From positions 10,435 through 74,434 of IMG/VR virus record IMGVR_UViG_3300030616_000250: DNA of 64,000 nucleotides. One strand, given 5' to 3'. The position numbers and the translations under genes are program-made. This DNA is from a virus. How positions within the stretch are numbered: the stretch's first letter is position 1; the number at the start of each line of letters is the position of its first letter. Under the pieces are notes generated by a model. It ran no database searches. It worked only from the letters and a program-made list of their open reading frames with translations, and was not told the DNA's origin. This document shows positions 2,991 through 59,977 of the stretch, in pieces.

Positions 2991-3392
2991 ATGGATTTAA
3001 AATCAGTGTCAGAAGAGGTGATTTCAACATTTGCAGAAAAATTAAAGGATTGTAGTGATTATGAAATATTAGAATTAATGGGAAGAAACCCAAAACGTGA
3101 TAATTATATGTTACATGGGGGTAATTGGATTCCAACAAACGTATCATTACCACCAATGTTTGAGACTGTATTTGTGCGAGGGGATACAAAAGAATATCCA
3201 TTTCATTTATATTGTGCAAGGCGTTGGACTGGGTGGTCATCCGGTTGGCCTGGCATAAGCGAAGGCAAGGAGCCACCTTGGGATTGGATAGCGTCTCCTT
3301 CTGATTTTCCTATAACAAATGTTACACACTGGTTTCCTATGCCAAGAGGAGAGAGAAAATATGAAAATAAAGTTAGTACATCCTTTGGGTAG
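2991..3392 (+). CDS. DUF551-like phage protein
   Basis: WIPTNVSLPP...VTHWFPMP motif; ATG at 2991 after GGAG. Confidence 0.6.
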   Translation: MDLKSVSEEVISTFAEKLKDCSDYEILELMGRNPKRDNYMLHGGNWIPTNVSLPPMFETVFVRGDTKEYPFHLYCARRWTGWSSGWPGISEGKEPPWDWIASPSDFPITNVTHWFPMPRGERKYENKVSTSFG

Positions 3393-3439
3393 TTAGTTGC
3401 AAAATTTGAAATATTGGATTATAACAGGAGAAATTTTTG

Positions 3440-3892
3440 ATGTGTAACGGAGGTTATTTCGGTATTGGAATCGAACATGGAAAAAATGAGTTAAATTATG
3501 GCACATTGTATAGAACGGCGGGTATCTTGGGAGCTAAATTTTTATTTATAATTGGGAAACGTTTTCAGCAACAATCATCTGACACAATAAAATCTTGGCG
3601 ACACGTCCCAATGTTTTCGTATCCAACCTTTAATGATTTTTATAAAAATTTACCTCACGATTGTATGTTAATTGGCGTTGAGATGATGCCAGAAGCAAGC
3701 TACCTTGAAAGGTTCACACATCCAGAGCGAGCATGTTATTTGTTAGGAGCCGAAGATCATGGGTTAACTAAACTTGCTATATCCAAATGTCATAAGTTTG
3801 TAAGGTTGCAGGGCGAGCACTCTTTGAACGTAAGTGTTGCAGGTTCAATTGTAATCTATGACAGGTTATCAAAAATTTCTCCTGCAAGATAA
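3440..3892 (+). CDS. SpoU/TrmH-family (SPOUT) RNA methyltransferase
   Basis: N.GTLYRTAGILG, LLGAEDHGL, SLNVSVAGSIVIYDR motifs. Confidence 0.9.
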   Translation: MCNGGYFGIGIEHGKNELNYGTLYRTAGILGAKFLFIIGKRFQQQSSDTIKSWRHVPMFSYPTFNDFYKNLPHDCMLIGVEMMPEASYLERFTHPERACYLLGAEDHGLTKLAISKCHKFVRLQGEHSLNVSVAGSIVIYDRLSKISPAR

Positions 3893-3913
3893 TATGGAAA
3901 TTTCAAATTCAAC

Positions 3914-3972
3914 ACACAACAGCCAAATGGTTAAACTAAAAAGCGAGCTTCACCATTAGGCATACGTTGTTA
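3914..3972 (+). repeat. attC-like site
   Basis: ACACAAC-agccaaatggt...accattaggc-atac-GTTGTTA imperfect hairpin. Confidence 0.7.
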
Positions 3973-3988
3973 ATATAGGAGAAAACAA

Positions 3989-4702
3989 ATGGAATTAAAA
4001 CCAATACCAAACCCTGAGTGGCAAAAGAAGTACAACCTGTTAATGCTCGACCCGTATCTCAATCGCAAGTACAACCGTGAGAAACGTATCAAAGACCACA
4101 GAAAATACATGGGTAATTGCACTCCTGAGCTAAAGAACTGCACGGGAAAGAACGTACTTGAAATCGGCCCCGCTATGGGAGAGTGGTTGGAGATATGCAG
4201 GGAGTTCGGTCATAATGTCTTTGGCATTGACGCAGTAGTCACGGACAACGAAATGGGAGATGAATACGCTCAGATGTCCAAGCTTATGACAGAACGGCAG
4301 GAGATTGATGTATTATACACCGGCTTTGACCGATACCTTTTAATGGACTTGGAGTACCGACAGGGTATAATACCAAACGGTTCTATCTTTTATATTAATC
4401 TTCGCGGTTGTATAGAGCAGGTGTTCAAGGATTACATGACAGGCCCCCCACACAAACAGACAAAAGACTGTTCACAGTTAGCATGGAAAGACACACCGGA
4501 AACGTGGGAGATGTTTGAGAGAATGTTCACCGAGTTTGACAGAATGCTTGAGGACGGCGGGTATATCTATATCTGGGCAAACGGGTCAAAGAACAATCCA
4601 ACCTATGACAATTACATACTTGAGACGTTGAAGAAGTTCCCGCAGCTTCAGTTATTCAAAAAGGTTGGCAAGGTACAACATAAGATAAGGAAGATGGCGT
4701 GA
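3989..4702 (+). CDS. class I SAM-dependent methyltransferase
   Basis: VLEIGPAMG, GHNVFGID, RMLEDGGYIYI. Confidence 0.8.
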   Translation: MELKPIPNPEWQKKYNLLMLDPYLNRKYNREKRIKDHRKYMGNCTPELKNCTGKNVLEIGPAMGEWLEICREFGHNVFGIDAVVTDNEMGDEYAQMSKLMTERQEIDVLYTGFDRYLLMDLEYRQGIIPNGSIFYINLRGCIEQVFKDYMTGPPHKQTKDCSQLAWKDTPETWEMFERMFTEFDRMLEDGGYIYIWANGSKNNPTYDNYILETLKKFPQLQLFKKVGKVQHKIRKMA

Positions 4703-5091
4703 GACGAAAATTAAGCTTATGGCAGGAATTAGAAGATGATTGGCAGGAAAAGTTTCAAGAACCAAGAGATGATTTATGGGTAAGTGGAATTGGGTATATC
4801 AAAATATTACAGCGAGAAACAGAAATTTTTCCAAGAATGAAATATGAAGGTGACAAGTCAAACAAAAAAAGAATCACTCGTAAAAAGAATATTATATGGG
4901 AAGTAGGTGATGTTGTAAGTGTTTCAGTGGGGGAAATATTTAAAAAGAAAGAAGAAACAAAAGATAACATTACTGAATTGACCATTGAAAATAACCCACA
5001 AGGTGATGGGTGTATAGGCAAGCTAAAGTTAATAAAAATAGAGCCTCACAAAGATTTTGACAATCTATACTTTGAAGTTGTGGAGTTTTGA
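4699..5091 (+). CDS. hypothetical protein
   Basis: ORF coupled to both neighbours. Confidence 0.55.
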   Translation: MRRKLSLWQELEDDWQEKFQEPRDDLWVSGIGYIKILQRETEIFPRMKYEGDKSNKKRITRKKNIIWEVGDVVSVSVGEIFKKKEETKDNITELTIENNPQGDGCIGKLKLIKIEPHKDFDNLYFEVVEF

Positions 5092-6119: not shown

Positions 6120-6139
6120 ATACCTAAATAGGAGGTTAT

Positions 6140-12668: not shown

Positions 12669-12725
12669 TTTTAACGTACGCCAAAAGGCTGAACGTCTAA
12701 AGATTTTAGCCTTTGGCAGTTGGGC
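12669..12725 (-). repeat. attC-like site of inverted cassette 1
   Basis: Minus strand GCCCAAC-tgccaaaggctaaaat...agccttttggcgtac-GTTAAAA. Confidence 0.8.
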
Positions 12726-13435
12726 GAAGGTTTTTCTTTTAATTAAGAAAGGTGCGACATGCTCTTTAAGTGATTTACCTCTTTTATTTAAGCATAACGA
12801 GAAACAAGATAATCAAAGCTCCAATAGTAAAATAAAAAGAAATGCGCTCACGGAATATGCTCGAAACATAATAGTCATCAATATCTTCATAATATTGGGT
12901 GTTTTGTTTCTTGTGTTCGGGATCATTAGCCATATCTTTGGTAGTAGAATCTTCGAAATATTTAGCTCGTTTTGAGTCAAGATTTCTATGTGAATAAATG
13001 TTCTTTGAAATAAGGGGAGAAGGGAAATAAAAGGTTTTATAATAGTTTAAGTGCTATTAAAAGCATGATAAGGGCAATTATAAATTTACTATCTATCCAT
13101 AGTAACATAATAAAACCCCCCATGCAACACCTTGATTTCCAGCTATTCCGTTTACCCTTTGTTTAATTAAACGCTCGGTTGCCGTAATTGGTGATTAAAC
13201 CAATTAATCGGCTGGTGGGTTTTGGTATATAGTCACCCCTGCGTTTACCAAATCAAACAAAGGCGCGCCCCCTTCTCATAAGCCAAGAAATAATCTTGGT
13301 CATAACTAACCTCCTTTTGGGAAGTTGAGGAGGGGGATTCCTCCCCGTTATTTCAAAGAGCTATGTATTAATCTTTAACAAAGGCTTTTCTCTTATGTCG
13401 CACAAGAAAAGAATCAGAGAACGAATTGAAACCAA
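12675..13435 (-). mobile_element. inverted integron-like cassette inserted in landing pad 1
   Basis: Bounded by AAC core triplets; removing it restores a perfect TTTTAAC...GTTAAAA site; internal inverted repeat 12752-12760/13395-13403. Confidence 0.75.
12786..13100 (-). pseudogene. degraded membrane-protein ORF in cassette 1 (approximate limits)
   Basis: Long open frame ending ...FYFTIGALIILFLVMLK*; hydrophobic N-terminal segment lies in a different frame. Confidence 0.3.
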
Positions 13436-13481
13436 CGAAACAAACGGTGGAAGTTTTAATTTCCACCTTTGGGAGTTAAAA
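13434..13481 (-). repeat. resident attC-like landing pad 1 (occupied)
   Basis: aac gaaacaaac GGTGGAA gttttaat TTCCACC tttggga gttaaaa; near-identical to 20375-20422; contains the RBS of the next gene. Confidence 0.8.
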
Positions 13482-19127: not shown

Positions 19128-19542
19128 CGTACGGCCAAGGTTTGTTGCAATTGCCTATAATCTCACACAAAAGTTACTGCAATTGTTTCAAACTTGGTCA
19201 GTTGTGTCTTGCCAAAATTTGCGTCATACATTCAAAAATAAGTCCAAATACACAATAAAACATCCACCCTCTCCAACAACCTTAAAATTGCTTATTAAAG
19301 AATTAGGGCACTGGAAAAGAGCTAATGATAAAAAATATAAATATAAAACTGGTGTATTTAATCCCCATGTAAAAATATGCTGTAGATGTAAAAACTGTAA
19401 TGAAACTATAAATTATGAAATACATACTGTAATGCCGGAACCTGGTTATTTTAAAATAATACCCAAAGAAGAATATGCTTATATTAAAGAAAAATATAGA
19501 AAAAGTGAAATAACTATTTTTTGTAAAAACGAATGTCTTTAA
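19114..19542 (+). CDS. chimeric ORF: landing-pad start fused through attC into a Cys-motif domain
   Basis: Starts outside the cassette; C-terminal half has CRCKNC...FCKNEC. Confidence 0.4.
   Translation: MKKINVRPRFVAIAYNLTQKLLQLFQTWSVVSCQNLRHTFKNKSKYTIKHPPSPTTLKLLIKELGHWKRANDKKYKYKTGVFNPHVKICCRCKNCNETINYEIHTVMPEPGYFKIIPKEEYAYIKEKYRKSEITIFCKNECL
19122..19207 (-). repeat. attC-like site of inverted cassette 2
   Basis: Minus strand ACACAAC-tgaccaagtttgaaacaattgc...gcaattgcaacaaaccttggccgtac-GTTAATT. Confidence 0.8.
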
Positions 19543-19753
19543 CAGGATCACCGTCAGCGTTGCTAACGCCATCAATGGCCTCAACATAAAAAGGGTTGCC
19601 ATCATGAGAAAGGCGCTGTTTAAGTTCATTAAAATAAGGGTGTTTTAAACTATGTCTATCATAAAAATCATTAGCATCCCATTTAAACGACTTTACATCA
19701 TTAAAAAGATTAAGGATTTTTTCTTTGATAATTTCATACTTTTCATCAGTCAT
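19514..19753 (-). CDS. hypothetical protein (cassette 2)
   Basis: AAGGAG RBS on the minus strand upstream of ATG. Confidence 0.65.
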   Translation of the reverse strand: MTDEKYEIIKEKILNLFNDVKSFKWDANDFYDRHSLKHPYFNELKQRLSHDGNPFYVEAIDGVSNADGDPVKDIRFYKK

Positions 19754-19785
19754 ACATACTCCTTTATATGGGGTAAGAGATAATG

Positions 19786-20292
19786 TTAATAATTTTTTGT
19801 ATGATGTTCAATAAGCTTTTTTTTAAAATCATTATAACACAAAGGTTCACCAAGTTCATTTTCCATAAATACTTCAAGCCCACATTCAGGACACTTAACA
19901 AAGGCAGCGTTATGGTCAGGCCCCCATTTGGTTTTTCTGCTTGGCTGAAAAGGAACAAGATGCTTTGGACAATAAATTTGCCAACTTTCATCATACCAAT
20001 ATTGGTTATATTTAAACAATTTAGGTTTTTCTTTGATTTTATTAATTTCGATTTTAAGTCGTTTAGTATAGGAGTAAAACATATATGTTAGGATTAATCC
20101 CAGAGATAGCATTGTGGCTATGGTGTACAGGGACCACGGGTGGCACAATTTGCTCCCTAATATGGTCGGACGAATTTTGTCTATGGCGAAAGCTATTGTA
20201 TTCAATCCTAGAGGGGATAGAAGATTCAACCATCCTTTCACTTTTTCTTTGGCTGTTTCTTCTACCGACGATATTATTAAATCCTTCAGCAT
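19786..20292 (-). CDS. membrane-anchored zinc-ribbon hypothetical protein (cassette 2)
   Basis: Hydrophobic segments, then YCPKH...KCPECG. Confidence 0.6.
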   Translation of the reverse strand: MLKDLIISSVEETAKEKVKGWLNLLSPLGLNTIAFAIDKIRPTILGSKLCHPWSLYTIATMLSLGLILTYMFYSYTKRLKIEINKIKEKPKLFKYNQYWYDESWQIYCPKHLVPFQPSRKTKWGPDHNAAFVKCPECGLEVFMENELGEPLCYNDFKKKLIEHHTKNY

Positions 20293-20374
20293 GGGGTATG
20301 CCCTTTCATAAAAATCTTTTTAGTGTATGGATAGATAAAATTGATATTTCTCTTAGCAAATTTTGGTTTGATAC

Positions 20375-20422
20375 AACGAAACAAACGGTGGAAGTTTTAA
20401 TTTCCATCTTTGGAGGTTAATT
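20375..20422 (-). repeat. resident attC-like landing pad 2 (occupied)
   Basis: aac gaaacaaac ggtggaa gttttaat ttccatc tttggag gttaatt; GGAGG RBS for 20424. Confidence 0.8.
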
Positions 20423-24361: not shown

Positions 24362-24432
24362 AATTTAACTATAGAAACGGCTGTAGTTTTAATTACAGCC
24401 TTTGGAGGTTAAAATGGAAAAGGACTCAATAA
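24346..24432 (+). CDS. 28-aa mini-ORF spanning empty landing pad 3
   Basis: GGAGG RBS at 24331; MEDGVKFNYRNGCSFNYSLWRLKWKRTQ; overlaps both flanking genes. Confidence 0.5.
   Translation: MEDGVKFNYRNGCSFNYSLWRLKWKRTQ
24363..24414 (-). repeat. resident attC-like landing pad 3 (empty)
   Basis: tttaac tatagaaac GGCTGTA gttttaat TACAGCC tttggag gttaaa; homologous to pads 1 and 2 with compensatory stem changes. Confidence 0.75.
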
Positions 24433-45059: not shown

Positions 45060-46472
45060 ATGCCTTATAATCCCGCACAATATGTTAGACCAAGAACGGG
45101 AATCAGAGCAGGAGCAGCGGCTTTAGGTGGTGCAATTGCACAAATCCCCGGTGAAATACGTGCCGACAGGGAATACGAATATCTACAGGAACAGCGCAGA
45201 ATAGCCGTAGAGGAAGCTAAGAAAAACTGGAGCGACATGGAGCTTACATGGAAGACACTTAAAAAGCAGTATGGCGCTATGGTACAACCACTACTCGACT
45301 CTAACCAGATGACCTTTGATGAATACAGCACCAATATTAGCATGATTCCACAGCCCACACAGGTCGACAAAAAAAATCCCGGTCAATATATAGATAGGCT
45401 CACACAAGCCTATGGGTCTATTGTAAAAGACGCTAAGAAACGCATACGCACACAGGAAGTGGCACCACAGGTGCAGACAGCCATACAAGGTGGTGAGACT
45501 CCTGAGAGACAAGTAACCGAAACCACAGGATATCAGCCTGCTGCAAGAGAAGGCGCGGCGTATGTTCCATCAAAAGCTGAAGGTGCCCCGGCAGGTGCTT
45601 ATAGTTCAGAAGGTGGACAAGTAGGTGGATTTACTAAATATGAACCTACCTTTGGACAAAAAACTTTACCTCCAGAAAAAGAACCCGCAGCACGAACAAA
45701 AGAAGAAGCTTATGGTAGACTCCCCGCAGGTAGAGGAATTACAACTACAGAGTTTGAGGAATTCGGTGGGAAGTATTTGCCTACAGGAATGGATATTAAA
45801 AAACAAAAAGCTAATGAAGAATATAAAAGAAAAATGTTGGCAAGAGGGTATGGGAAGGATGCGGTTGACAATGCCTTAAAAGAATTGGATTTATTAAGAA
45901 AATTCAGAAACGACGATACCCGCGTTGAATTGTCCCTTGAAGATGATAAGAGAATGCTTACTTCTTTGAAAAGCCGTGTGCAAAAAGGTGATGCTTTAAC
46001 TCCTGATGAAATTCAACAATTAACCGAACAGGGCATAGACCCACTAACAGTACAACAGGGCGGAGAAGACTTGGCGGTAGAAATAGGAGACATAATTAAA
46101 GATACCGATGGAAAACTTGGAATTCAAAGACAAAAGTCAAAGAGAACAGAAGAGGCAATAAGATTAAAAGCAGAAAATCCCAATGCTGATATTCATGAAA
46201 TAATAAGCGAAACACAAACAACACAATATCCTCAAGGCGCACCTACTATAAAAAGCCCGCTTGGTGTACCTCCGGCAGCAGGGGGAAGAAAGCAAATAGG
46301 TAGACAGGGAACGGTAGCCGGGAGACAGGGAATACAAACACAAAAGCCCCCTTCGGCACAACCCATAGGCAAAATGGAGCAGGCTATACGAGACACACTA
46401 TCGAAAAAAGGTGTAAGCCCACAAGTAATTGAAGATTACATAGCTGAAAAGAAAGCGAAAGGACAGCTATAG
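45060..46472 (+). CDS. putative ejection protein
   Basis: AGAAALGGAIA N-terminus; helical; position. Confidence 0.5.
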   Translation: MPYNPAQYVRPRTGIRAGAAALGGAIAQIPGEIRADREYEYLQEQRRIAVEEAKKNWSDMELTWKTLKKQYGAMVQPLLDSNQMTFDEYSTNISMIPQPTQVDKKNPGQYIDRLTQAYGSIVKDAKKRIRTQEVAPQVQTAIQGGETPERQVTETTGYQPAAREGAAYVPSKAEGAPAGAYSSEGGQVGGFTKYEPTFGQKTLPPEKEPAARTKEEAYGRLPAGRGITTTEFEEFGGKYLPTGMDIKKQKANEEYKRKMLARGYGKDAVDNALKELDLLRKFRNDDTRVELSLEDDKRMLTSLKSRVQKGDALTPDEIQQLTEQGIDPLTVQQGGEDLAVEIGDIIKDTDGKLGIQRQKSKRTEEAIRLKAENPNADIHEIISETQTTQYPQGAPTIKSPLGVPPAAGGRKQIGRQGTVAGRQGIQTQKPPSAQPIGKMEQAIRDTLSKKGVSPQVIEDYIAEKKAKGQL

Positions 46473-49400
46473 TGGGAATCTTTGACGAATTTGACAAGGA
46501 ATTTGGCTTTACCACAACCGAACCATCTGAGGATATGTTTTCTCAGTTTGATAAGGAATTTGGTTTTACGGAAGAACCCACCGCTGCACCTGCCATACAG
46601 ACAGAAATGCCTTTGGAGCCCGCCACGGAAACTACCCAAATAGGCACTACTGCTATTCAACCCGCAGAACCCATAGAGCCGGAACCACGTATATTTGCAC
46701 CGGACACCGGACAGCAAATAGCGGAAGAGATATTTACCGGAAAGGGAGCAGAATTAGAGGAGCCGGAACCAACGCCGGGAATACAACCTATCAGGAGTCT
46801 TATAGAAGGGGTAAAGCAAGTTCCCCGCCAATTAGCTCAGTATATGAAGGGTTCGGCATTGGCAAGCAAGGGTGAATCTGAAAAATATCTTGAAGACTCA
46901 AAGCGCAAGGCAAAGGAATATAAAAAGAAAGCCGATGAATTCAGGGCAAAGGGAGACGAAAAATCTGCAAGCGCATGGGATAGGTTCGCACGGATACAGG
47001 AAGACGAGGTTAAAAAACATACAAGCGACATAGGCGTGTTTAAGGAAATAGACAAAGCCTCTAATTATGTAGTTGAAGCCTATCAACCAGACCCGGAATT
47101 TAAGAAAGCAACCGGATTAAAAGGATATGTTCAGGATGTGATTATGATAGCCCCGCAGATAACTACACAAATTGCAGCAACGGCAGCGGGAGGGCCAGCC
47201 GCAGGCGTAGCATTTATGGGAGGTCAAATAGCAGGCGGTAAATATGAGCAACTTGTAGAACAGGGTGTAGAGCCCGAAAGGGCTTTAGCTGCGGGAATAA
47301 CCGATGCTGTTCTACAGGCACCTCTTGAACAAATAGGTATCGGTAAGGTAATGAGCGTGTGGAAGCCGGGAAAAACTGCTTCAAAAGTATTAAAGGAAAT
47401 TGTTGAGGCCGGGGGAACGGAATTTGTTACCGAATGGCTACAAGCCTATCCCGAAGCAATAACGGAAATATGGGCAAAGTCAAAAGGTAAATCTAATCAG
47501 GAAAGAGCCGAACAGTTTGTAGGTGATTTCTGGGAAGTTACAAAGAACGGATTGTATCAGGGGTTAGTGGCATTTCCTTTGGGGGCAGCCGGGGCAGGAG
47601 GAGGAGCAGCGGTTACAGCACAAACACAACGACAGGAAGCGTTAAAGAGGGGTGATATTGTTCCCGAAGGTTTCGTCAAAACCGAAGAGGGCAAAGTAGT
47701 CAGAAAAGAATTCGTTGAAAAAGGACTACCCGCCTTAGAAGAAGAAGTCAAAGCAGTATCACCGGAGGAGCGCAGGGTAAGAGAGGAAAAGTACGAAGCT
47801 GAAAAAGCCGCAGAAAAGGCACCCCCGATAACAGAAGAAGAAAAGCCGATAGTTAAAAAGTTTGAGCCCTATAAGCCCACAGAAGAAGAACTCGCAAAGC
47901 TTCCGAAGCCACCCCCTATTGAAAAAACAGGCATTAAAGAAATGCCAAAGGAGCCACCTAAACCCGCACCAAAAAAAGAAACACTCCCCCCACTGAAAGA
48001 GGAGATAGAATCAAAGCCACTCTATCGTGGTGGAATATCTTTTGAAACAGAAAGACCCGGAATACACCTTACTCCAGAAAAAACAACCGCAGAGGAGTTT
48101 GCCAAAAGAACAAAGGGGAAAGTTGAAACATACAATGTTGATATCAAGAACCCGCTTAGAACTGAGGATAGACAAACAGCTTTAGAGGAAGTGTTTGATA
48201 AGCAAAAAGCAAAAGATATTATTCTCGGTGAATATTCAAAATATCCAGATGCTAAGAAAATATATGATGAGATGGGCGATCAGTTTGACGAATCGTTGCT
48301 TGAGGAAAAGTTATTAATACCCGCGTTAAAGAAAAAAGGGTATGATGGACTTATATTAGAAGTTGGACAGAATGAAAAACCAGAAGTGGTAGTTTTTTCT
48401 AAAGAACAACTGACACCCGTAAAACCACTGAAAGAGGAGATAAAAGAAGCGATTGAACCTGAGAAGCCTGTAGGAGAAAAGGATGTTACACGTTATATTA
48501 GCGACAAACACAAGGATACTGAGTTTTTGTTGCATCCGTCTACTGAGAAAGTTGGCAATTGGCAAGTAACACAAATGAAAGATGGTGATCCACACGGACA
48601 CACCATATACCCATCTAAACAAGAAGCTATAGATGCTATTCATGGCAAGGGAAAAGAGCCTGAAATTTGGGGAGATGATTCGTGGAAAATAGCAGAAGTA
48701 GTCAAACCCAAAGCACCCGAGAAGCCCGTGGAGAAGCCGGAGAAGGCAAAAGAACCTGAAAAGCCGTTGTTGGCGAAAGGGTTACAAAAATATCCTAATG
48801 AGATATACGAAGCAATTGAAACATCAACAGGCGCAAGGTTCACGAAAAAGGAAATAGATTCATGGGACTTTGACGAAGTTAGGAGAGATGCGGAACCGGG
48901 TTTGGAGGGTGGAAGGGATGAATTTAATAAGCTTGTTGGAAAAGCACCGAAAGAAGAAAAGGTAGATATTAAGAGAAAACAATACAAAAACAAATTAGTG
49001 AGCAATGTAATAAAGGAACACGGGACAACGGAAAATGTTGGAGATATTGGCTTTATATTAACTGATGGAAGGGCAGTTAAAAGTGAACAACGGGGTATAG
49101 ACCATAGGCAAATGGCATTAGACGCATTGCCTGAAGATACAAAAATTACAGAACCCGGAGAAGCCCTTGATGAATTTTTAGATAAAACAGAAAGCATAAG
49201 AGTATTAAATGCAGGAAAGGCATTAAATATAGATATTCGCACTGAACCCACCGACCAACAATTAAATAAAATAGAAAAATTAGCTGATATAGCAAAAGAA
49301 ATATATGTTGATATAAGCGAAGGCAAAAGGAAAGACTCTGGTTCGTTTAATAATAAAAGAGAATTTTTAAAGTTCGTGAATTCTTTTTATAGAGGAGAAG

Positions 49401-52400
49401 GGTATAGACCACCTTCACTTGCACAACAATATCATTTAAAGAAACAAATAGCCCCTACTACTTTCAAAGAGTCTCTCACTGAAGTAGAAAAGAAAGTTTC
49501 CCCCGAACTATGGAAACGTAGTAAAATTACCTTTGCCGAACACTACGGCAACAAAGGACAGTACACTCTCAAAAAAGGAGACAAGGGAGCTATATGGTAT
49601 GACAAGGGACGGTTTAACATAGTAATCAATCCCGCCAATACCGCACAGGAAACAGCAACTACACTCTTCCACGAAATAGCAGGACACGCAGGGGCGGCGA
49701 ATGTTCTAAAGCAGAATCCTACTATAGCAAAAAGGATGAATTCCCTATATAAGCTGCAGAAAGACAGTGACCTTGTAAAAAAAATCCGTGAAGCCTATAA
49801 AGAAGAAATGGCAAAAGACCCCACCAAAGCCGAGGACTTGGTATACTCAGAATGGATAGCCTCTAACGTAGAACAGCACCTTGCCAATCCCAAGAAGCAG
49901 GGAGTAGCCTATCAGGTATGGAAGCATATTAAGAAGTTTCTTATCGACTTAGGAGTAGCGAAAGACAGCGTAGATGACGTTATAAACAGTATGGTAGGAG
50001 AGATACGAAAGGTTAAGGGGATTAAGGGAGAGGTAGCGGCGACGGTTGAATTGGCAAAAGATATTGAAAAGGCAAAGCCCAAGACAGAAACACCTGAGTT
50101 TAAAAAGTGGTTTGGGGAATCAAAGGTTAAGGATGAAAAGGGAAAGCCTTTGGTTGTATATCATGGGACAGATGAAGATTTTGATGTTTTTGACAAGAAT
50201 TTAAGAGGAAAAAATTTTGGCGACACAAAATCTAAGAAGGGTTGGTTTTTTACAGAGACAAAAGAAATGGCAAAGTCTTACGGGGAAAAACAAATTCCAT
50301 TATATTTAAGCGTAAAAAACCCACTTAAAATAGACGCAAAAAAAGTTCTAAAAACAGAGCGTGACTATTTGATTAAAAAGGGTGAGTTTGATGGAAGCTT
50401 TGATAAATTTGTGAAAGATTTTTTAGGTGAATTTGGCCCCTACGGATATGTTGAGCAAGCAATAAATAGCTACGTGGATTCCGCTATTGATGACAACAAA
50501 GATGGTGTTATTATTGATTTTGGTGATTTAGAAGACCCTGATTTTGGTAAACTTAAAAAGGTTATAATTGCCTTTGAACCCACTCAAATAAAATCCGCAA
50601 TAGGAAATGTGGGAACTTTCAAAGAAACTGAACCAAGCATTTTAAAAAAGAAAAAAATTAAAAAACCTATCAAGAGAAGAAAACCGAAACCCAAACCCAC
50701 CCCAGAACCTACAACTATGCTTGCAAAGGATATATCTACCAATAAAGTACCGGAAGAAACATTCTCTGAGAGATTTGTTCAAAAGTGGGTAGATAAACGA
50801 TACCGACTAAAGGTTCTGCAAGACATAATTACTCCTGATATTAGTGAGGATATGGATACTTATACAAAGGCGGAGTTAATAGATAGCAAGATAGAATCAA
50901 TGCTTGATGAGTTTGAAGATAATCACTTTAAACCTCTTAGAGAAAAACTTGTCAAAGCAGACATTCCCTTAGAGAAGTTTGAAGAATATCTGTATGCGAG
51001 ACATGCGAAAGAGCGGAACGCTTATATCAATAAAATCAATCCCGAATTCAGGGAAAAAGATATAGCAGGCTCAGGAATGGAAGATGTCGAAGCCGATGCC
51101 ATATTATCAGAAGTAAAAAAATCAGAAAAAGCAAACCAGTATAATGAGCTTGGAAAAATAGTTGATGATATTACTTCTCGCATAAGAAGAGTGCTTTTTG
51201 ATGCAGGGCTTATTGATGCAGAAACTAAAAAAGCTTGGGAGAATTATAAATATTATGTTCCGTTAAGAGGTATAGGTGAAGAAGAAACACGCATGAAAGT
51301 GGGGCGTGGTTTTGATATACGAGGAAAGGAATCAAAAAGGGCATTAGGAAGAAAGTCTAAAGCAAGAAACATTTTGTCTCATCTTGTAATTCAAATGAAT
51401 GAAGCTATTGTAAGAGCCAACAAAAACAAGGTGGGGCAAGTATTTCTAAGATATGTCCGTGAAAATCCCAATCCTGATTTGTGGGAAATAGATGAAGTTC
51501 AGATAAAACCAAAATTTAACGAGAACACGGGCGAAGTTGAGTACAAGGAAGAAAAGGTAAGGGTATATAAAGACCCTAAAACGGGCAAGCTTATTGAACC
51601 TATGTCGGTTAAGGTCGATGGTAAGGAATATCATATCACCATAAAGAATTTAGGGCTTGCCAAAGCTATGGTGAACATGGGCGCAGAAAAAGCTAACATA
51701 GTAGTACAAGTAACGGGATATGTAAATAGATATCTTGCCATGGTGAACACTTCTCTGTCGGCGGGGTTTATACCTACTAACTTTGGTAGAGATATACAAA
51801 CAGCACTAATAAATATAGCGGGTGAAAAAGAATTGTCTCTTAAAGAATCTATTAGTGTAGGGAAGGATATTGCTAAAAACTCAATAGTAAAAGCTATGCC
51901 CGCGGTGTGGAGTGTTGAGCGTGGAGGAAAAGAATCGGAATGGACTCAATGGTATAGAGAATTTAAACAAGAAGGGGGAAAGATAGGCTTTTTTGGTTTA
52001 AGGGGTATTGATAGAGTACAAAAAGAACTTGTGCAGGAAATATCATTGCTTAAACCAGGAAATAAAAATCAGATAAGAAAATATGCAAGAGCGTTAAAAC
52101 ATTTTGTATTAAATGCAAACGAAGCAGTTGAAAATGGTACTCGATTAGCTACATACGTAGCCATGAGAAAGCGTGGGGTATCTAAACAGAGAGCGGCAAG
52201 TATAGCTAAGAACATCACAGTAAATTTTAATAAAAAGGGTGAATATGGGGCTATGATGAATGCTTTTTACATCTTCTCTAATGCAAGCGTACAAGGTGTG
52301 GCGAGACTTTATAGAGCAATAAAACACCCAAGAGTGCGAAAGATAGTAGGTAGCATTACGGTAGGCTCATTTCTTTTAGCTCAAATGAACCGCTGGCTTG

Positions 52401-53455
52401 CAGGCGAAGATGACGATGACGAGAACTATTATGATAAGATACCGGACTGGATAAAAGAAAACAATATCATCATAATGAGACCGGGAATTAAGACGCTTGA
52501 CAAGGATGGTTTTTTAAACAGTATACATTATTTTAAGTTTCCCGTTCCTTATGGTTATAATATTTTTCATGCTTTGGGACAGGCGACAGATAAAGCTGTT
52601 CACAATAGAAATAAAGATAGTTTGCTTGAATCTGCGGCTATGGTAGGAAGTGCAATAGGGAATGCCTTTAATCCACTTGGAAGTTCGGCTTCGTGGCTTC
52701 AAACAATTACCCCAACAATAGGTAGGTGGGCAACAGACCTTTCTCTTAACAAGAATTTCTTTGGTGCGCCTATAATGAAGGAAGAAAAGTTCGGTGTGCC
52801 TAAAGCAAAAGCACATCAATATTTTAAATCTACTTCCGAACAAAGCAAGCAGATAGCTCAGACTTTAAACGATCTTACAGGTGGTTCAAAATATCAACCG
52901 GGAATGATAGATATTTCACCAGATTTAATGGATTATGTAGCTGAATATTTTACGGGCAGTGCAGGGAGACAGATTAATCAGCTAATTAGTGTAGCAAGCA
53001 AAGTCGCAACAAAGAAAGAAGTTTCTGTTCGTTCTATCCCTGTAGTGAGAAGATTTCTTGGTGAAGTGCCTGAGTTTCAAAACGTACAAACCTTCTATGA
53101 ACACTCTGACAAGCTAAAGGCTATACGTGCCGATTACAAGGAATATCTCAAAACCAATCCAAGAAAAGCAGCGGAAATCAGAGAAAAACAGAAGCCCAAA
53201 CTAAGGGTGACAATGAAGCAGCCGTTCTCTCCACAGTTTCTTAGAGTGGCTTATCCTAATTATTATGCCTCACTTAAACAGAAAAGGACTATACGCTCAA
53301 CCGAATTAAACATCATGCAGAAGGAGTTAAAAGAACTTAACAAGAGAAAAAAGCGTTTCGACGAACTCGGTAATCTCAGAAAGAAAAAGGAATACGAAGA
53401 CAAAATACAAGCTACTGTTAAACAATTTAACAAACGACTTGGAGGACTAAAATGA
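46472..53455 (+). CDS. large polyvalent (LPD38-type) internal virion protein with two ART-PolyVal-like domains and a zincin motif
   Basis: KPLYRG..G.HLT..NPL..YDGLI and KPLVVYHGT..GWFFT..NPL..DGVII..FEPTQIKS; HEIAGH; ITVNFNKKG, YIFSNASVQG, YDKIPDWIKENN, P.PYG C-terminus. Confidence 0.8.
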   Translation: MGIFDEFDKEFGFTTTEPSEDMFSQFDKEFGFTEEPTAAPAIQTEMPLEPATETTQIGTTAIQPAEPIEPEPRIFAPDTGQQIAEEIFTGKGAELEEPEPTPGIQPIRSLIEGVKQVPRQLAQYMKGSALASKGESEKYLEDSKRKAKEYKKKADEFRAKGDEKSASAWDRFARIQEDEVKKHTSDIGVFKEIDKASNYVVEAYQPDPEFKKATGLKGYVQDVIMIAPQITTQIAATAAGGPAAGVAFMGGQIAGGKYEQLVEQGVEPERALAAGITDAVLQAPLEQIGIGKVMSVWKPGKTASKVLKEIVEAGGTEFVTEWLQAYPEAITEIWAKSKGKSNQERAEQFVGDFWEVTKNGLYQGLVAFPLGAAGAGGGAAVTAQTQRQEALKRGDIVPEGFVKTEEGKVVRKEFVEKGLPALEEEVKAVSPEERRVREEKYEAEKAAEKAPPITEEEKPIVKKFEPYKPTEEELAKLPKPPPIEKTGIKEMPKEPPKPAPKKETLPPLKEEIESKPLYRGGISFETERPGIHLTPEKTTAEEFAKRTKGKVETYNVDIKNPLRTEDRQTALEEVFDKQKAKDIILGEYSKYPDAKKIYDEMGDQFDESLLEEKLLIPALKKKGYDGLILEVGQNEKPEVVVFSKEQLTPVKPLKEEIKEAIEPEKPVGEKDVTRYISDKHKDTEFLLHPSTEKVGNWQVTQMKDGDPHGHTIYPSKQEAIDAIHGKGKEPEIWGDDSWKIAEVVKPKAPEKPVEKPEKAKEPEKPLLAKGLQKYPNEIYEAIETSTGARFTKKEIDSWDFDEVRRDAEPGLEGGRDEFNKLVGKAPKEEKVDIKRKQYKNKLVSNVIKEHGTTENVGDIGFILTDGRAVKSEQRGIDHRQMALDALPEDTKITEPGEALDEFLDKTESIRVLNAGKALNIDIRTEPTDQQLNKIEKLADIAKEIYVDISEGKRKDSGSFNNKREFLKFVNSFYRGEGYRPPSLAQQYHLKKQIAPTTFKESLTEVEKKVSPELWKRSKITFAEHYGNKGQYTLKKGDKGAIWYDKGRFNIVINPANTAQETATTLFHEIAGHAGAANVLKQNPTIAKRMNSLYKLQKDSDLVKKIREAYKEEMAKDPTKAEDLVYSEWIASNVEQHLANPKKQGVAYQVWKHIKKFLIDLGVAKDSVDDVINSMVGEIRKVKGIKGEVAATVELAKDIEKAKPKTETPEFKKWFGESKVKDEKGKPLVVYHGTDEDFDVFDKNLRGKNFGDTKSKKGWFFTETKEMAKSYGEKQIPLYLSVKNPLKIDAKKVLKTERDYLIKKGEFDGSFDKFVKDFLGEFGPYGYVEQAINSYVDSAIDDNKDGVIIDFGDLEDPDFGKLKKVIIAFEPTQIKSAIGNVGTFKETEPSILKKKKIKKPIKRRKPKPKPTPEPTTMLAKDISTNKVPEETFSERFVQKWVDKRYRLKVLQDIITPDISEDMDTYTKAELIDSKIESMLDEFEDNHFKPLREKLVKADIPLEKFEEYLYARHAKERNAYINKINPEFREKDIAGSGMEDVEADAILSEVKKSEKANQYNELGKIVDDITSRIRRVLFDAGLIDAETKKAWENYKYYVPLRGIGEEETRMKVGRGFDIRGKESKRALGRKSKARNILSHLVIQMNEAIVRANKNKVGQVFLRYVRENPNPDLWEIDEVQIKPKFNENTGEVEYKEEKVRVYKDPKTGKLIEPMSVKVDGKEYHITIKNLGLAKAMVNMGAEKANIVVQVTGYVNRYLAMVNTSLSAGFIPTNFGRDIQTALINIAGEKELSLKESISVGKDIAKNSIVKAMPAVWSVERGGKESEWTQWYREFKQEGGKIGFFGLRGIDRVQKELVQEISLLKPGNKNQIRKYARALKHFVLNANEAVENGTRLATYVAMRKRGVSKQRAASIAKNITVNFNKKGEYGAMMNAFYIFSNASVQGVARLYRAIKHPRVRKIVGSITVGSFLLAQMNRWLAGEDDDDENYYDKIPDWIKENNIIIMRPGIKTLDKDGFLNSIHYFKFPVPYGYNIFHALGQATDKAVHNRNKDSLLESAAMVGSAIGNAFNPLGSSASWLQTITPTIGRWATDLSLNKNFFGAPIMKEEKFGVPKAKAHQYFKSTSEQSKQIAQTLNDLTGGSKYQPGMIDISPDLMDYVAEYFTGSAGRQINQLISVASKVATKKEVSVRSIPVVRRFLGEVPEFQNVQTFYEHSDKLKAIRADYKEYLKTNPRKAAEIREKQKPKLRVTMKQPFSPQFLRVAYPNYYASLKQKRTIRSTELNIMQKELKELNKRKKRFDELGNLRKKKEYEDKIQATVKQFNKRLGGLK

Positions 53456-56874: not shown

Positions 56875-56880
56875 AGGATT

Positions 56881-57078
56881 ATGAAAGTTAATCAATTTGA
56901 AATATCAGACAAAATGGACATAGACAAAAACAATTTGCCTGAATGGACATGGGATGATATTATCAGATTAGGTTTATTGGTAGCTAAAATACTAAGCCTA
57001 TCCAACGAGCGTATTTACAAAGGCTTATACTGGCTATCTCAAAAAAAAGTAAAGGAACTTATTTCATATAATCTGTAG
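56881..57078 (+). CDS. hypothetical protein
   Basis: ORF immediately before the cassette array. Confidence 0.5.
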   Translation: MKVNQFEISDKMDIDKNNLPEWTWDDIIRLGLLVAKILSLSNERIYKGLYWLSQKKVKELISYNL

Positions 57079-57126
57079 TTGAATGCAATTCCGTTGTCAA
57101 AACGATTATTATAAAGGAGAATTACT

Positions 57127-57438
57127 ATGGCCGTTCCCGAAGAAGTAAAACGGTGGATGATTGATAATAATATTTCTGTTGTTGATTTAAACTGGAAAGC
57201 TATGCGAGAAAGCGGAGTTGATTTTAAGGAAGTTTTAAAGTGGGAACTTGCTAATAAGCACCTCTTTAATTCTCCTAAAAGCTCTAAGGAAGCTGACAAC
57301 TCCACAGACATTCAACAGCCAAAGGCTGAAATTTCTTGTGATGATATAAACAGCTTTGATTCATTTGTCAAACGATGTGCAAATGACGACGAGTTAATTC
57401 TTTGGAACAAACTATACAAGAAACTGTCAGCCGTTTAG
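57127..57438 (+). CDS. cassette A1 hypothetical protein (reads through attC)
   Basis: AAGGAG RBS; stop lies in the right arm of attC. Confidence 0.65.
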   Translation: MAVPEEVKRWMIDNNISVVDLNWKAMRESGVDFKEVLKWELANKHLFNSPKSSKEADNSTDIQQPKAEISCDDINSFDSFVKRCANDDELILWNKLYKKLSAV

Positions 57439-57450
57439 CAAACGTTGTCG
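57310..57450 (+). repeat. attC-like site A1
   Basis: ATTCAAC agccaaaggctgaaatttcttgt...acaagaaactgtcagccgtttagcaaac GTTGTCG. Confidence 0.8.
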
Positions 57451-57477
57451 GAAACTTCACTTATGGGAGATTATTAT

Positions 57478-57726
57478 ATGAAAAATTTAAATCGATATTA
57501 TTTTCATCCAGACGGTATGCGTTTGGATATGGCGCAAGGTGACAATCAAAAGGGTAGGTGGGTTAAATTTTACGATCATGTGGAAGCATTGCGTTCCGCA
57601 TCCGACAACACAGACAGCCAGAAATGCCTTTGTACAACATGCGTTAGACGTAGAATAGGATGCTATCTTGAATATCTGCCAGAATGTAAATCATACGCTG
57701 AAGTATTAAGAGGTGATAAATTTTAG
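57478..57726 (+). CDS. cassette A2 hypothetical protein (paralog of A8 N-terminus)
   Basis: GGGAG RBS; KGRWVKF.DHV.ALRSASDN. Confidence 0.65.
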   Translation: MKNLNRYYFHPDGMRLDMAQGDNQKGRWVKFYDHVEALRSASDNTDSQKCLCTTCVRRRIGCYLEYLPECKSYAEVLRGDKF

Positions 57727-57764
57727 GCGTAGCGGCACATCTGGCGGTGTCTGAAACGTTAGGT
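57603..57764 (+). repeat. attC-like site A2
   Basis: CGACAAC acagacagccagaaatgcc...ggcacatctggcggtgtctgaaac GTTAGGT. Confidence 0.8.
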
Positions 57765-57803
57765 GGAAATTTTTTCTTTTTGAGATTATAGGAGAATTTG
57801 ACT

Positions 57804-58127
57804 ATGTGGATAAATGTAAAAGATAGTTTACCAGAAGAAGGTACATTGGTTATTGCGTCAAATGGATTGGCGTGGGGGTTTGCATTGTTTGAGGATGGCG
57901 ATTTTTGTTTTGAAGATTGGGTTATGGGCGTACCGACAGGTGATATAATCGAATGGATGGTTCCAGTGCCGTCAAATTCTCAGGAAAGTGGAAGCGAAAA
58001 AACTTCACCTAACACGACAAATACCGCCATTGCTTTGTTAGATGAATTTATTGAAGTGTATGAATCATGTGGAATATCATTAGAATTAGCAGAGTTTTAT
58101 GACAAGGTTTGTGAATGGAAAAAATAG
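57804..58127 (+). CDS. cassette A3 DUF551-like protein
   Basis: WINVKDSLPE...IEWM.P. Confidence 0.7.
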   Translation: MWINVKDSLPEEGTLVIASNGLAWGFALFEDGDFCFEDWVMGVPTGDIIEWMVPVPSNSQESGSEKTSPNTTNTAIALLDEFIEVYESCGISLELAEFYDKVCEWKK

Positions 58128-58158
58128 CGCAACAGCGGTAGTTTGCGGAACGTTGGGT
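58007..58158 (+). repeat. attC-like site A3
   Basis: ACCTAAC acgacaaataccgcc...gcggtagtttgcggaac GTTGGGT. Confidence 0.8.
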
Positions 58159-58192
58159 TTAATTCGCCTAAAAATTGTAAGGAGAATTGCTT

Positions 58193-58606
58193 ATGGATAA
58201 TAAACACGCTGGATGGCATCAAGGTTATTTCGTTGACCAACGTCAATATAAACGCATGCCAGAATCTTGGAAGGATGAGTGTAGACGTAAAGAACGGTTG
58301 TTAGTAAGACCATCATCACCTTTAGGTAATGCAATATGTAAATGTAACGAGCCTGAAATTGCTGAATGGATTGCAGAAAGGTTAAATCTTGCTGCTAAGT
58401 TGGAAAGCAATTCTCCTAAGAGTAATATTGAATCGGCGAACTCCGCCGAAGCGGCTAAACCCAACACAGACTATGCAAAATGTGCTGAGGAAATTATGAG
58501 GAATATATCAGATCGTAGAGGATACGATCTTTACTCGTGTGATGAGGATATTATCAATGACATTCGTTCTAGTATATCAAATATTATAGCAGCACACTTC
58601 GCATAA
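58193..58606 (+). CDS. cassette A4 hypothetical protein
   Basis: AAGGAG RBS; reads through attC. Confidence 0.65.
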   Translation: MDNKHAGWHQGYFVDQRQYKRMPESWKDECRRKERLLVRPSSPLGNAICKCNEPEIAEWIAERLNLAAKLESNSPKSNIESANSAEAAKPNTDYAKCAEEIMRNISDRRGYDLYSCDEDIINDIRSSISNIIAAHFA

Positions 58607-58621
58607 TCTGGAACGTTGGTT
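58459..58621 (+). repeat. attC-like site A4
   Basis: ACCCAAC acagactatgcaaaatgtgct...agcacacttcgcataatctggaac GTTGGTT. Confidence 0.85.
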
Positions 58622-58656
58622 GCAATTTCGCTCTTAAATTTGATTGGAGGTCGGCA

Positions 58657-58902
58657 GTGTCACAAGGATTTTATTTAGAGGAAACAAGTTATCGTCTTAT
58701 TGAGAGTCTTACTCTTGCGGCAGAACGAATTGCCGACAGATTAGATGAACTCGCTCAACAGTCAACTAACACGACAAAGGCTAAAATTCAGCCGTGTGTT
58801 AATAAGAGGTGTGACGCGTGGTCTAAAGGAATTGAAGGTAATTGTTGTGAGTGGGAATTAAGTGATATGACAAAGTGTAATGATTATAGGGCTGAACAAT
58901 AG
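58657..58902 (+). CDS. cassette A5 hypothetical protein
   Basis: GGAGG RBS + GTG; Cys-rich C-terminus encoded in the attC loop. Confidence 0.6.
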   Translation: MSQGFYLEETSYRLIESLTLAAERIADRLDELAQQSTNTTKAKIQPCVNKRCDAWSKGIEGNCCEWELSDMTKCNDYRAEQ

Positions 58903-58922
58903 CCTTTTGCGGAACGTTGGGT
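58764..58922 (+). repeat. attC-like site A5
   Basis: AACTAAC acgacaaaggctaaaattcagcc...ggctgaacaatagccttttgcggaac GTTGGGT. Confidence 0.85.
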
Positions 58923-58956
58923 TTAATTCGCCTAAAAATTGTAAAGGAGAATTGCT

Positions 58957-59253
58957 ATGAGTAAATGGGAATGTAACAATTGTGGTGAGGATAAGTGTAC
59001 ACGAGAGGGAAATTTTTTGCAACCAATTAATTGTACAATGTATTCGTGGAGAAAACCCAAGTGGAAGGAAGTCCGCAATTCTCAAGAAAATATTGAGCCG
59101 TCGAACTCCGCCGAAGCGGCTAAACCCAACAACCGCAGTGACGAAATAGCTTCTCATTTAATGGCACATTCTCGTGATGACGGGATGGGTGAGGTAATAA
59201 TAAACGCCGGTGAATTTTACCAGGCAGTGAAGCAACTTCGCACGGTGCGGTGA
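58957..59253 (+). CDS. cassette A6 hypothetical protein
   Basis: AAGGAG RBS; CNNC...C...C N-terminus. Confidence 0.65.
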   Translation: MSKWECNNCGEDKCTREGNFLQPINCTMYSWRKPKWKEVRNSQENIEPSNSAEAAKPNNRSDEIASHLMAHSRDDGMGEVIINAGEFYQAVKQLRTVR

Positions 59254-59262
59254 ACGTTGAAT
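59124..59262 (+). repeat. attC-like site A6
   Basis: ACCCAAC aaccgcagtgacgaaatagcttc...gaagcaacttcgcacggtgcggtgaac GTTGAAT. Confidence 0.85.
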
Positions 59263-59316
59263 GAAAATTTTGAAATTTGAGATATTAGTTTTTCACATCT
59301 AAAAATTGGAGGTTTT

Positions 59317-59529
59317 ATGAATAACAAGGGTTTTACGTTAGTAGAGTTGATTGTTGTTATAATTATTTCTTTCTGTATAGTGGGGGAAGTAATGTGTATT
59401 ACGAAGTGTATTAATTCAGACTGGGAGCCGTCATATAAGCGTGAAATTATTTATGGCGCATCCGCATTAACGGGGATTGGTTCAGTCGTTGGATATTTTA
59501 ATATACCCGATGTGAAAAAAGAAAATTAA
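59317..59529 (+). CDS. cassette A7 small protein with prepilin-type N-terminal cleavage/methylation motif
   Basis: NKG/FTLVELIVVIII. Confidence 0.75.
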   Translation: MNNKGFTLVELIVVIIISFCIVGEVMCITKCINSDWEPSYKREIIYGASALTGIGSVVGYFNIPDVKKEN

Positions 59530-59547
59530 TGATATTTCAAAATCAAC

Positions 59548-59677
59548 ATTCAACAGCGACAGGGCAAAATGTTAATTTGCAGGATTAGTATTGGTCTTAT
59601 AATTGGGTTTGCGATTGGGCTTTTAGCTGGATGCTTTCGGTGGGGTTAACACTTCGCCAGTAGTGCGTACGTTGTCG
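59548..59677 (+). repeat. attC-like site A7
   Basis: ATTCAAC agcgacagggcaaaatgttaa...ttaacacttcgccagtagtgcgtac GTTGTCG. Confidence 0.75.
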
Positions 59678-59704
59678 GAAACTCCACTTAAAGGAGATTG
59701 TTAT

Positions 59705-59977
59705 ATGGAAAATTTACAAAGATATCTACCTGTGTTTTATGGATTGAGACCTGGGATGAAAAAATCATCTAAGGGTAGGTGGGTTAAATTTTCCGATCAT
59801 GTGGTAGCATTGCGTTCCGCATCCGACAACACGACAAAGGCTAAAATTTGCCCATATTGTGGAAATGATTACCCGCTTACCTTGCTCATTGGTACATATA
59901 CCGAACTTGATACAGCGGCAGGCACTAAATTTTTTCGATGTGGAAATTGTAAACGATTATATGAGGGCAAACAATAG
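59705..59977 (+). CDS. cassette A8 hypothetical protein with zinc ribbon in the attC loop
   Basis: AAGGAG RBS; CPYCG...CGNC. Confidence 0.65.
   Translation: MENLQRYLPVFYGLRPGMKKSSKGRWVKFSDHVVALRSASDNTTKAKICPYCGNDYPLTLLIGTYTELDTAAGTKFFRCGNCKRLYEGKQ

Follow-up and report, generated by a model that had tools for sequence, protein, structure and literature searches.

The analyzed window, 64,000 nt of a phage genome (bases 10435-74434 of the 74,434-bp IMG/VR record IMGVR_UViG_3300030616_000250, rated complete by CheckV), contains eleven integron-like gene units whose mirror-image ends reach 20-50 nt past the short recombination core, and it raises the question of what such ends are for. The pairing of these ends is cassette-specific, anchored to the cassette junction and absent from 17 known integron cassettes used as controls. 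Tentatively, at a probability of roughly 40%, the palindromic ends are read here as a DNA-level structural part of the mobile unit that is linked to its mobility.

The eleven units are named T, A1-A8, inv1, and inv2. T (3392-3920) is the cassette with a TrmH/SpoU methyltransferase gene, A1 to A8 form a tandem array (57078-59830), and inv1 (12719-13436) and inv2 (19201-20377) lie on the minus strand within a sugar-biosynthesis operon. All 11 share one layout, with a GTT at the start, an AAC at the end, and then an imperfect hairpin up to the next GTT; their genes encode the TrmH methyltransferase, a prepilin-like peptide, and orphan proteins. A search of the genome for GTT...AAC core pairs returned no cassettes beyond the eleven, and A4, A7, and A3 were the top three of 159 pairs when ranked by extended arms.

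The original prediction described long imperfect terminal inverted repeats in each cassette, and the exact pairs that it quoted are all present where it placed them: 17/17 in T (3425-3441 / 3868-3884), 13/13 in A4 (58180-58192 / 58405-58417), 11/11 in A3 (57792-57802 / 57971-57981), 11/11 in inv2 (19212-19222 / 20356-20366), and 9/9 in inv1 (12752-12760 / 13395-13403), together with 10-mers in A7 and A8. Lone inverted 9- to 11-mers are common in this genome (exact inverted 11-mers within 1.5 kb number 25 in the window vs. about 15 expected), and position-specific pairing was therefore tested; the significance of the exact pairs comes from their position and register, not from their length alone. 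The first 60 nt of each cassette were paired with its last 70 nt, excluding the 9-nt core, using DNA parameters and 200 dinucleotide shuffles. End pairing was stronger than in the shuffles, most clearly in T (z -8.8), and seven of the eleven cassettes were individually significant (Table 1). Pairing beyond the core is thus real, although "each" was too broad, because A2, A5, A6, and A8 are weak; the support for these four consists of blocks of 7-10 nt and rests mainly on their matching offset.

The specificity of the pairing was evident when right arms were swapped among cassettes, which gave a summed energy of -93.9 +/- 6.5 kcal/mol vs. -164.3 kcal/mol for own arms, a sum that 50,000 permutations never reached. 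The own arm was the best partner in 7/11 cassettes. Similarly, a blind scan of the 74-kb genome found 19 windows of 60 nt scoring >= 19 vs. 1.8 in shuffles, with T, A3, and A7 among the peaks.

The claim that the first ~40-60 nt pair with the last ~40-60 nt stands insofar as the arms do pair, but they do not form continuous duplexes. Each arm has three parts: a perfect core of 5-10 nt; about 25 nt that are poorly paired, sometimes with a middle block; and a perfectly paired inner block (7-17 nt). Pairing runs on from the junction core in 11/11 cassettes. The own perfect core is 8-10 nt long in A1-A4 and A6-A8; A5 matches at 7/8 positions, inv1 and inv2 have 5 nt each, and T is in a shifted register. 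In 10/11 cassettes, inv2 being the exception, the left-arm inner block is approximately 34-47 nt from the GTT/AAC junction (spans from 29-39 to 40-50). Counted from the GTT, its offsets are 34-50 (T), 38-47 (A1), 39-47 (A2), 35-45 (A3), 29-41 (A4), 36-42 (A5), 32-40 (A6), 34-44 (A7), 37-46 (A8), 34-42 (inv1), and 12-22 nt (inv2). The right-arm offset is within 3 nt of the left-arm offset in 8/10; in A4 and A6, the right-arm block is displaced by 16-20 nt by a 15-nt GC-rich insertion.

The distance from the inner block to the start codon varies from -27 to +13 nt, and the distance from GTT to the start codon is 34-61 nt, most 5' leaders being 41-49 nt long. Consequently, the block covers different features in different cassettes: the Shine-Dalgarno site and spacer in T, A1, A3, A4, and A6; the stretch between Shine-Dalgarno and GTG start in A5; the leader upstream of the ribosome site in A7, where the left arm ends 7 nt upstream of the Shine-Dalgarno GGAGG and 18 nt upstream of the ATG; and codons 2-4 in A2 and A8. 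The arms of inv1 and inv2 are far from any start codon. Since the offset from GTT is steady while the distance to the start codon varies, the inner block is anchored to the junction and not to translation signals.

The control set comprised 17 cassettes, 13 from the chromosomal-integron fragment of Vibrio phage Va_90-11-286_p16, three from TJE1, and one from P12002L, all with perfect own cores of 8-11 nt. The 16 cassettes of the Vibrio phage and TJE1 paired no better than shuffles past 9 nt (mean z -0.10, range -1.8 to +0.9), and the best inner perfect block in 17/17 controls was 4-7 nt long, at scattered offsets. In addition, the flanks of 40 TrmH homologues from other phages, metagenomes, and bacteria gave a Smith-Waterman local-alignment score of 9.9 +/- 2.7 vs. 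25 for T, and a TrmH search of viral, metagenome, and genome collections yielded about 95 loci, all at 78% identity or less and all without flanking repeats. As both control sets lack long ends, these are a property of the present cassettes, and neither of integron cassettes generally nor of the TrmH gene. Among viral contigs, no relative of the neighbouring radical-SAM protein was found, and neither exact nor degenerate attC-arm patterns had a match.

Integron attC sites have the core boxes RYYYAAC (R'') and GTTRRRY (R') and an inner L''/L' repeat with unpaired bases, and they are about 57-141 nt long. In the present units, AAC and GTT are invariant at 11/11 junction pairs, and the first bases of a cassette complement its own R'' box and not that of its neighbour, which is the mark of a crossover between the G and the TT of GTT; this complementarity is not independent of the longer palindrome, and the controls show it with 8-11 nt. 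The inner arms of the attC-like hairpins beat shuffles at 10/11 sites (z -2.2 to -6.0; A7, -0.3), and bulges are visible by eye in T, inv1, and A1. The sites of T (59 nt), inv1 (57 nt), and inv2 (86 nt) are within the usual length range, and the array sites, at 130-163 nt, are at or above its limit.

Clusters of attC sites lacking an integrase (CALINs) occur in 17 phages, some of them being functional with IntI1 (Qi et al., 2023, PMC9892861), and a phage attC array is therefore not new as such; the long self-pairing cassette ends appear to be what is new here. The likeness to these phage cassettes (PMC9892861) extends to a head-to-tail order with joints where ...AAC meets GTT..., to first bases that complement the ...AAC box downstream in the same unit, to the imperfect hairpin that separates this box from the following GTT, and to the lack of an integrase gene. 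As in TJE1, where they run through the R'' box into the attC site (locus L096, 1-1520), reading frames enter the hairpin, and the short sites of T and inv1 resemble P12002L_attC1 in their GGCTAAAA / CCGTTTAGC arms. Four features differ from known cassettes. Pairing in the latter stops after 8-11 nt, whereas here it resumes as a perfect block 34-47 nt in; a GTTRRRY core is present in only 5/11 units here; the array hairpins here enclose 116-160 nt coding for C-terminal domains; and identity between paralogues or relatives breaks here at the AAC box too, not only between G and TT.

The pairing was also compared between the two strands. Arm mismatches comprise 15 of the G:T type on the sense strand, seven of the G:T type on the other strand, and 59 transversions; the arm alignments showed no G:U enrichment and no sense-strand advantage, and duplex energy under DNA parameters is equal on both strands (mean difference 0.45 kcal/mol). 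Nothing in the pairing points specifically to RNA. For T, the RNA fold of the body as a whole has ordinary stability (z -0.4), and the end pairing alone stands out. The proposal that an excised circle would form a long rod was borne out in silico: the circularly joined T junction folds into one interrupted hairpin on either DNA strand, with -29 and -31 kcal/mol as single-stranded DNA vs. -12.5 kcal/mol in the integrated context.

Most weight is placed on a DNA-level role because the feature common to the eleven units is a junction-anchored, cassette-specific, strand-symmetric palindrome. The gene units would then be integron-like cassettes, each body being closed by an imperfect palindrome of its own. 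When the DNA is single-stranded, the inner helix would close the gene into a loop and zip toward the core, laying GTT... against ...AAC, and in a free circular copy, the arms would prolong the attC stem into one long rod. Such folding may help the unit move. One candidate mover is a host integron-type integrase, an enzyme that needs folded sites; how readily an attC site folds determines how often it recombines (Loot et al., 2017, PMC5371416). Alternatively, the hairpins could guide polymerase template-switching from one short AAC repeat at their base to another. In mRNA, this pairing would damp translation as a side effect, possibly put to use.

Several observations weigh against a role in mobility. 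All evidence on the arms comes from one genome, and Phage_integrase, Resolvase, Y1 transposase, and reverse transcriptase had no match at E <= 1 in the whole 74-kb genome; with no tyrosine or serine recombinase encoded in the phage, any enzyme would be host-supplied. A strict GTTRRRY fit is limited to 5/11 left cores (A1, A3, A4, A6, and A7), A2 and A8 having GTTGTCG. In the folding simulation, the circular form of known cassettes pairs its junction box with 8-11 nt alone, and the extra arms are therefore not obviously needed for this purpose. The A6 left arm was copied from A4 without matching right-arm changes; 39 nt of A6 (58906-58944) are identical to A4 58142-58180 and cover the first 29 nt of the A6 left arm (58916-58944). 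Lastly, the cassettes of the AGGAGAATT type (T, A1, A3, A4, and A6) have their longest perfect block at the ribosome site, and this block extends into the variable spacer by 6, 1, 4, 4, and 2 nt, respectively, vs. 0-1 nt in cross-pairs; this would fit selection at the RNA level equally.

This last point belongs to the strongest alternative, an RNA switch in which the 3' arm is an anti-Shine-Dalgarno that pairs with the leader after transcription and shuts off or meters translation of its own gene in the manner of hok; this is considered unlikely, though less so than the other alternatives. RNA folding of the bodies predicts that the Shine-Dalgarno is paired with the 3' arm with a probability of 1.00 in T, 0.99 in A4, 0.79 in A3, 0.76 in A1, and 0.52 in A5. 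The 17-bp helix of T includes TCAAAAATT, which codes for the Ser-Lys-Ile that a 78% homologue (L001) also has, so the T leader is complementary to native gene sequence, to which it must have been fitted. The KISP tail that follows Ser-Lys-Ile and encodes the anti-Shine-Dalgarno is kept in relatives at 93% (P0001) and 79% (P0002). However, the predicted probability is <= 0.12 in A2, A6, A7, and A8, and the ribosome site also lies outside the pairing in inv1 and inv2. The position of the block tracks the junction and not the start codon, and the pairing shows neither an enrichment in G:U pairs nor a strand bias. The earlier statement that cassettes often sequester their own ribosome-binding site hence applies to a predicted 4-5 of the nine forward cassettes and not to most, and the off-switch proposed with it keeps the predicted burial in T, A4, A3, A1, and A5 but not the position of the block or the base-pair composition. 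As the block is fixed to GTT while the start-codon distance varies, ribosome-site masking looks like a consequence of the length of the untranslated leader, not an organizing principle; with most leaders at 41-49 nt, about half of the cassettes have their ribosome site under the inner helix. Masking is well predicted for these and may be a frequent side effect and a real secondary use.

Less probable again is the view that the arms are relics, i.e., that palindromic frames without an open reading frame (ORF) captured unrelated genes centrally and that the arms were inherited and kept alike by gene conversion, with no present function. It draws on the families that the arms form: both arms are shared by A4 and A6, whose genes are unrelated, the arms and the N-terminal part by A2 and A8, and the first 21 nt by T and A7, while T, A1, A3, A4, and A6 have a common AGGAGA(A)TT block of the AGGAGAATT type. 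In addition, the mismatches are mostly transversions, as in decaying repeats. The reuse of arms by A4 and A6 with unrelated genes would fit a shared palindromic frame; the T helix, however, enters native coding sequence, and cassette-specific extensions of this kind require a later step of adaptation or copying. Changes between A2 and A8 come as facing pairs: their right arms differ at two positions, each facing one of eight left-arm differences, and one of these turns an A.A mismatch into G-C while the other shifts a bulge with six pairs kept. All of these facing changes alter amino acids, yet they create or keep pairs, which also counts in favour of the DNA-level role. Moreover, unrelated arm families (A7, inv1, and A2/A8) have their inner block at one constant offset, which points to a constraint that still acts.

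Ends of a non-autonomous transposon, such as a miniature inverted-repeat transposable element or a mobile insertion cassette served by a transposase in trans, would account for inverted repeats that flank genes with no transposase inside, but this reading is rejected as very improbable: the arms differ between cassettes save for GTT/AAC and a loose motif, so that there is no single transposase-binding end, target-site duplications are absent at the borders, and the units alternate with attC-like hairpins whose inner arms are significant in 10/11. Chance, combined with the reverse complement of a common ribosome-site motif inside genes, could draw on the excess of 11-mers in this AT-rich genome and on the recurrence of AGGAG / CTCCT, but, as far as statistics from a single genome can show, it is dismissed by the permutation, shuffling, and control sets and by blocks unrelated to the ribosome site that sit at the same offset.

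The reading of the ends as DNA-level parts of mobile units can be set beside the exchange of modules between genomes. The identities of A2/A8 and A4/A6 stop 1-2 nt past the AAC box. A marine-sediment contig of 2,967 nt (run X1) contains 57443-57611, the A2 body from GTT to AAC, without any difference and with unrelated flanks on both sides, and two further contigs of the same run part from the window exactly at a GTT, one at that of A5 and the other at that of A7; a freshwater contig begins at the GTT of A1. Overall, two public DNA runs (X1 and X2; marine sediment and freshwater), which account for small shares of the window, present the modules of 57441-59700 in another order. In the contig tables, one marine-sediment contig joins 58171 to 58430; this could be a frame of the A4 type that lacks its gene, which would be compatible with the relic reading. 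At the protein level, the closest relatives are 93% (P0001), 79% (P0002), and 98% (P0121) identical, and the metagenome protein P0122 combines the C-terminal zinc-ribbon part of A8 with an N-terminal part that is unrelated to that of A8, the two meeting at Pro-Asn. Judged from these comparisons, related genomes exchange modules exactly at the cassette junctions, and protein domains appear to be swapped in frame at the AAC box. The contig breaks, the limits of identity at the AAC box, and the P0122 join indicate that bodies and loops are exchanged separately, with the outer arm ends as borders. The A8 zinc-ribbon part (59705-59977) is encoded inside the attC-like loop, and the Pro-Asn join is the AAC box.

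A more speculative and rather doubtful extension is that gene bodies and attC-like loops are both units closed by a hairpin, the base of one abutting that of the next at AAC/GTT. The body frames may then be intermediates of de novo cassette formation, in which genes were caught in the centre of a gene-less palindromic cassette with a ribosome site, or modules may be shuffled by polymerase template-switching at the hairpin bases without a dedicated recombinase.

Other known systems share parts of this architecture. In hok-type (type I toxin) mRNA, long-range pairing between the 5' and 3' ends keeps the full-length message untranslated, and similarly, sequence at or after the gene end is predicted here to pair with the leader and bury the ribosome site in T, A4, A3, and A1. 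Unlike in hok-type systems, there is no evident antisense RNA or toxin gene, and the pairing is not in every cassette and is anchored to a DNA junction. No small toxin gene with an antisense RNA partner was found: the cassettes carry TrmH, prepilin-like, and orphan genes, and promoter-like sites numbered 13 vs. 11.1 +/- 3.5 in shuffles, were not enriched on either strand, and were not consistently in the arms. For lack of such enrichment, a role of the left arms as promoters was rejected.

Tn5 and Tn10 undergo transposase-independent precise excision, and palindromes stimulate deletion between short direct repeats by slipped mispairing. As in these events, long inverted repeats on single-stranded DNA would bring together short direct repeats at their base, an AAC preceding the GTT of the A2-A7 bodies and ending all eleven bodies. 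In contrast to Tn5/Tn10, the direct repeat is just 3 nt and is absent at T, A1, A8, inv1, and inv2. The PeSL regulatory cassettes of T4-type phages reportedly consist of a promoter and a stem-loop. They resemble the present units in that a variable part of the phage genome holds small accessory genes that have repeated structured elements at their borders and are shuffled among relatives. Here, however, the repeats are inverted around, and specific to, each gene, and promoter-like sites are not enriched, so that an early promoter with a stem-loop at each border was not found and the PeSL assignment was rejected. In rRNA operons, the 16S and 23S flanks pair into processing stalks that are cut by RNase III. 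Sequences flanking a gene-sized segment form a long interrupted helix in both cases, but the segment enclosed here is protein-coding, and the predicted helix holds the ribosome site and the last codons.

The creation of integron cassettes has been described as largely unknown (Loot et al., 2017, PMC5371416), and the control of cassette folding, capture, and expression outside the attC site has been little studied. The eleven cassettes have a second, cassette-specific helix that is made from non-coding ends at a fixed distance from the crossover point, which the 17 known cassettes do not have. If this helix acts in recombination, it would add a new structural element to what is known of cassette mobility; if its action is in mRNA, it would be a translational brake built into a mobile unit; and if it is a relic, cassettes would have been assembled on reusable palindromic frames.

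Table 1. Positions of the arms and adjoining hairpins in the window, with the z-score of the own-end duplex given on the left-arm line of each cassette.
Feature	Position	Strand	Remarks
T left arm	3392..3441	+	GTT core, AATTTGAAAT block, 17-nt block over Shine-Dalgarno site, spacer, and start; z -8.8
T right arm	3868..3920	+	last 8 codons and stop of TrmH, up to ...CACAAC box
T attC-like short hairpin	about 3914-3968	+	follows T right arm
A1 left arm	57078..57127	+	inner block AGGAGAATTA at 57115-57124; z -3.9
A1 right arm	57265..57316	+	terminates in ATTCAAC
A2 left arm	57444..57491	+	inner block AAAATTTAA right after ATG; weak alone (z -0.8)
A2 right arm	57562..57609	+	terminates in TCCGACAAC
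A3 left arm	57758..57802	+	GTTAGGTG core, AA.TTTTTTC, GAGAATTTGAC; z -5.1
A3 right arm	57971..58013	+	terminates in CACCTAAC
A4 left arm	58152..58192	+	GTTGGGTTTA, TTCGCC, AGGAGAATTGCTT; z -4.1
A4 right arm	58405..58465	+	contains the 15-nt GC-rich insertion, which folds as its own small hairpin
A5 left arm	58615..58656	+	inner block just 7 nt, GTCGGCA; weak (z -0.7)
A5 right arm	58731..58770	+	
A6 left arm	58916..58955	+	weak (z -1.5)
A6 right arm	59075..59130	+	GCAATTCTC, then frame common to A4
A7 left arm	59256..59299	+	GTTGAATG, ATTTTGAAAT, TTTTTCACATC; z -4.1
A7 right arm	59509..59554	+	
A8 left arm	59671..59716	+	inner block GGAAAATTTA = codons 2-4; z -2.2
A8 right arm	59785..59830	+	
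inv1 left arm	13395..13436	-	GTTGG ... GTGCGACAT at offset 34-42; z -3.0
inv1 right arm	12719..12760	-	offset 34-42 as on left arm
inv1 attC-like hairpin	about 12669-12725	-	
inv2 left arm	20356..20377	-	18/22 nt match right arm; z -4.0
inv2 right arm	19201..19222	-	

Some further features of the cassettes and their surroundings were recorded. The A7 gene (59317-59529) encodes a 70-aa product whose N-terminus bears a methylation motif of the prepilin type (Pfam N_methyl, E 5e-6), and the loop after A7 contains a separate hydrophobic mini-ORF of 24 codons from about 59569. Within both minus-strand cassettes, the first small gene is enclosed by a second long inverted repeat (Smith-Waterman score 19-20), at 12993-13019 / 13341-13369 in inv1 and at 19656-19716 / 20030-20091 in inv2. 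A 47-nt element, made up of the hairpin GGTGGAAGTTTTAATTTCCACC and a ribosome site, is present in three copies in the sugar operon (13433-13479, 20374-20420, and 24366-24412); two copies directly follow the minus-strand cassettes, and one stands alone, resembling an unfilled insertion site. TJE1 also has sugar-modification genes adjoining its cassette array, as does this phage.

Rfam gave zero family matches in the window. Outside it, ARAGORN with introns allowed reported a tRNA-Leu(UAA) interrupted by an insert of 833 nt (genome 5271-6195, window -5163 to -4239; L099/L100), which overlaps the 3' two-thirds of a 351-aa ORF without a PHROG match. No group I intron was found in this insert by Rfam, the sole hit being a weak match to a tmRNA 3' end. 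The strongest non-cassette inverted repeat (window -4492..-4427 / -4343..-4287) lies inside the insert, beside a clear tRNA-like T-arm and acceptor end.

Nearly all genes of the 74-kb phage genome are on the + strand, and its products include a portal, a large terminase, tail-fibre-like proteins, a giant protein of 2,327 aa, and several HNH endonucleases. Two radical-SAM genes, located at opposite ends of the record (genome 14-865 and window 61707-62573), belong to the same PHROG family (phrog_9298) and encode proteins that are 48% identical; they are diverged paralogues and not a terminal repeat. The C-terminal 800 residues of the 2,327-aa protein (46472-53455) match PHROG families (E 1e-169) whose proteins are 2,800-3,900 aa long and of unknown function, and the protein may be a giant protein that is packaged in the virion.

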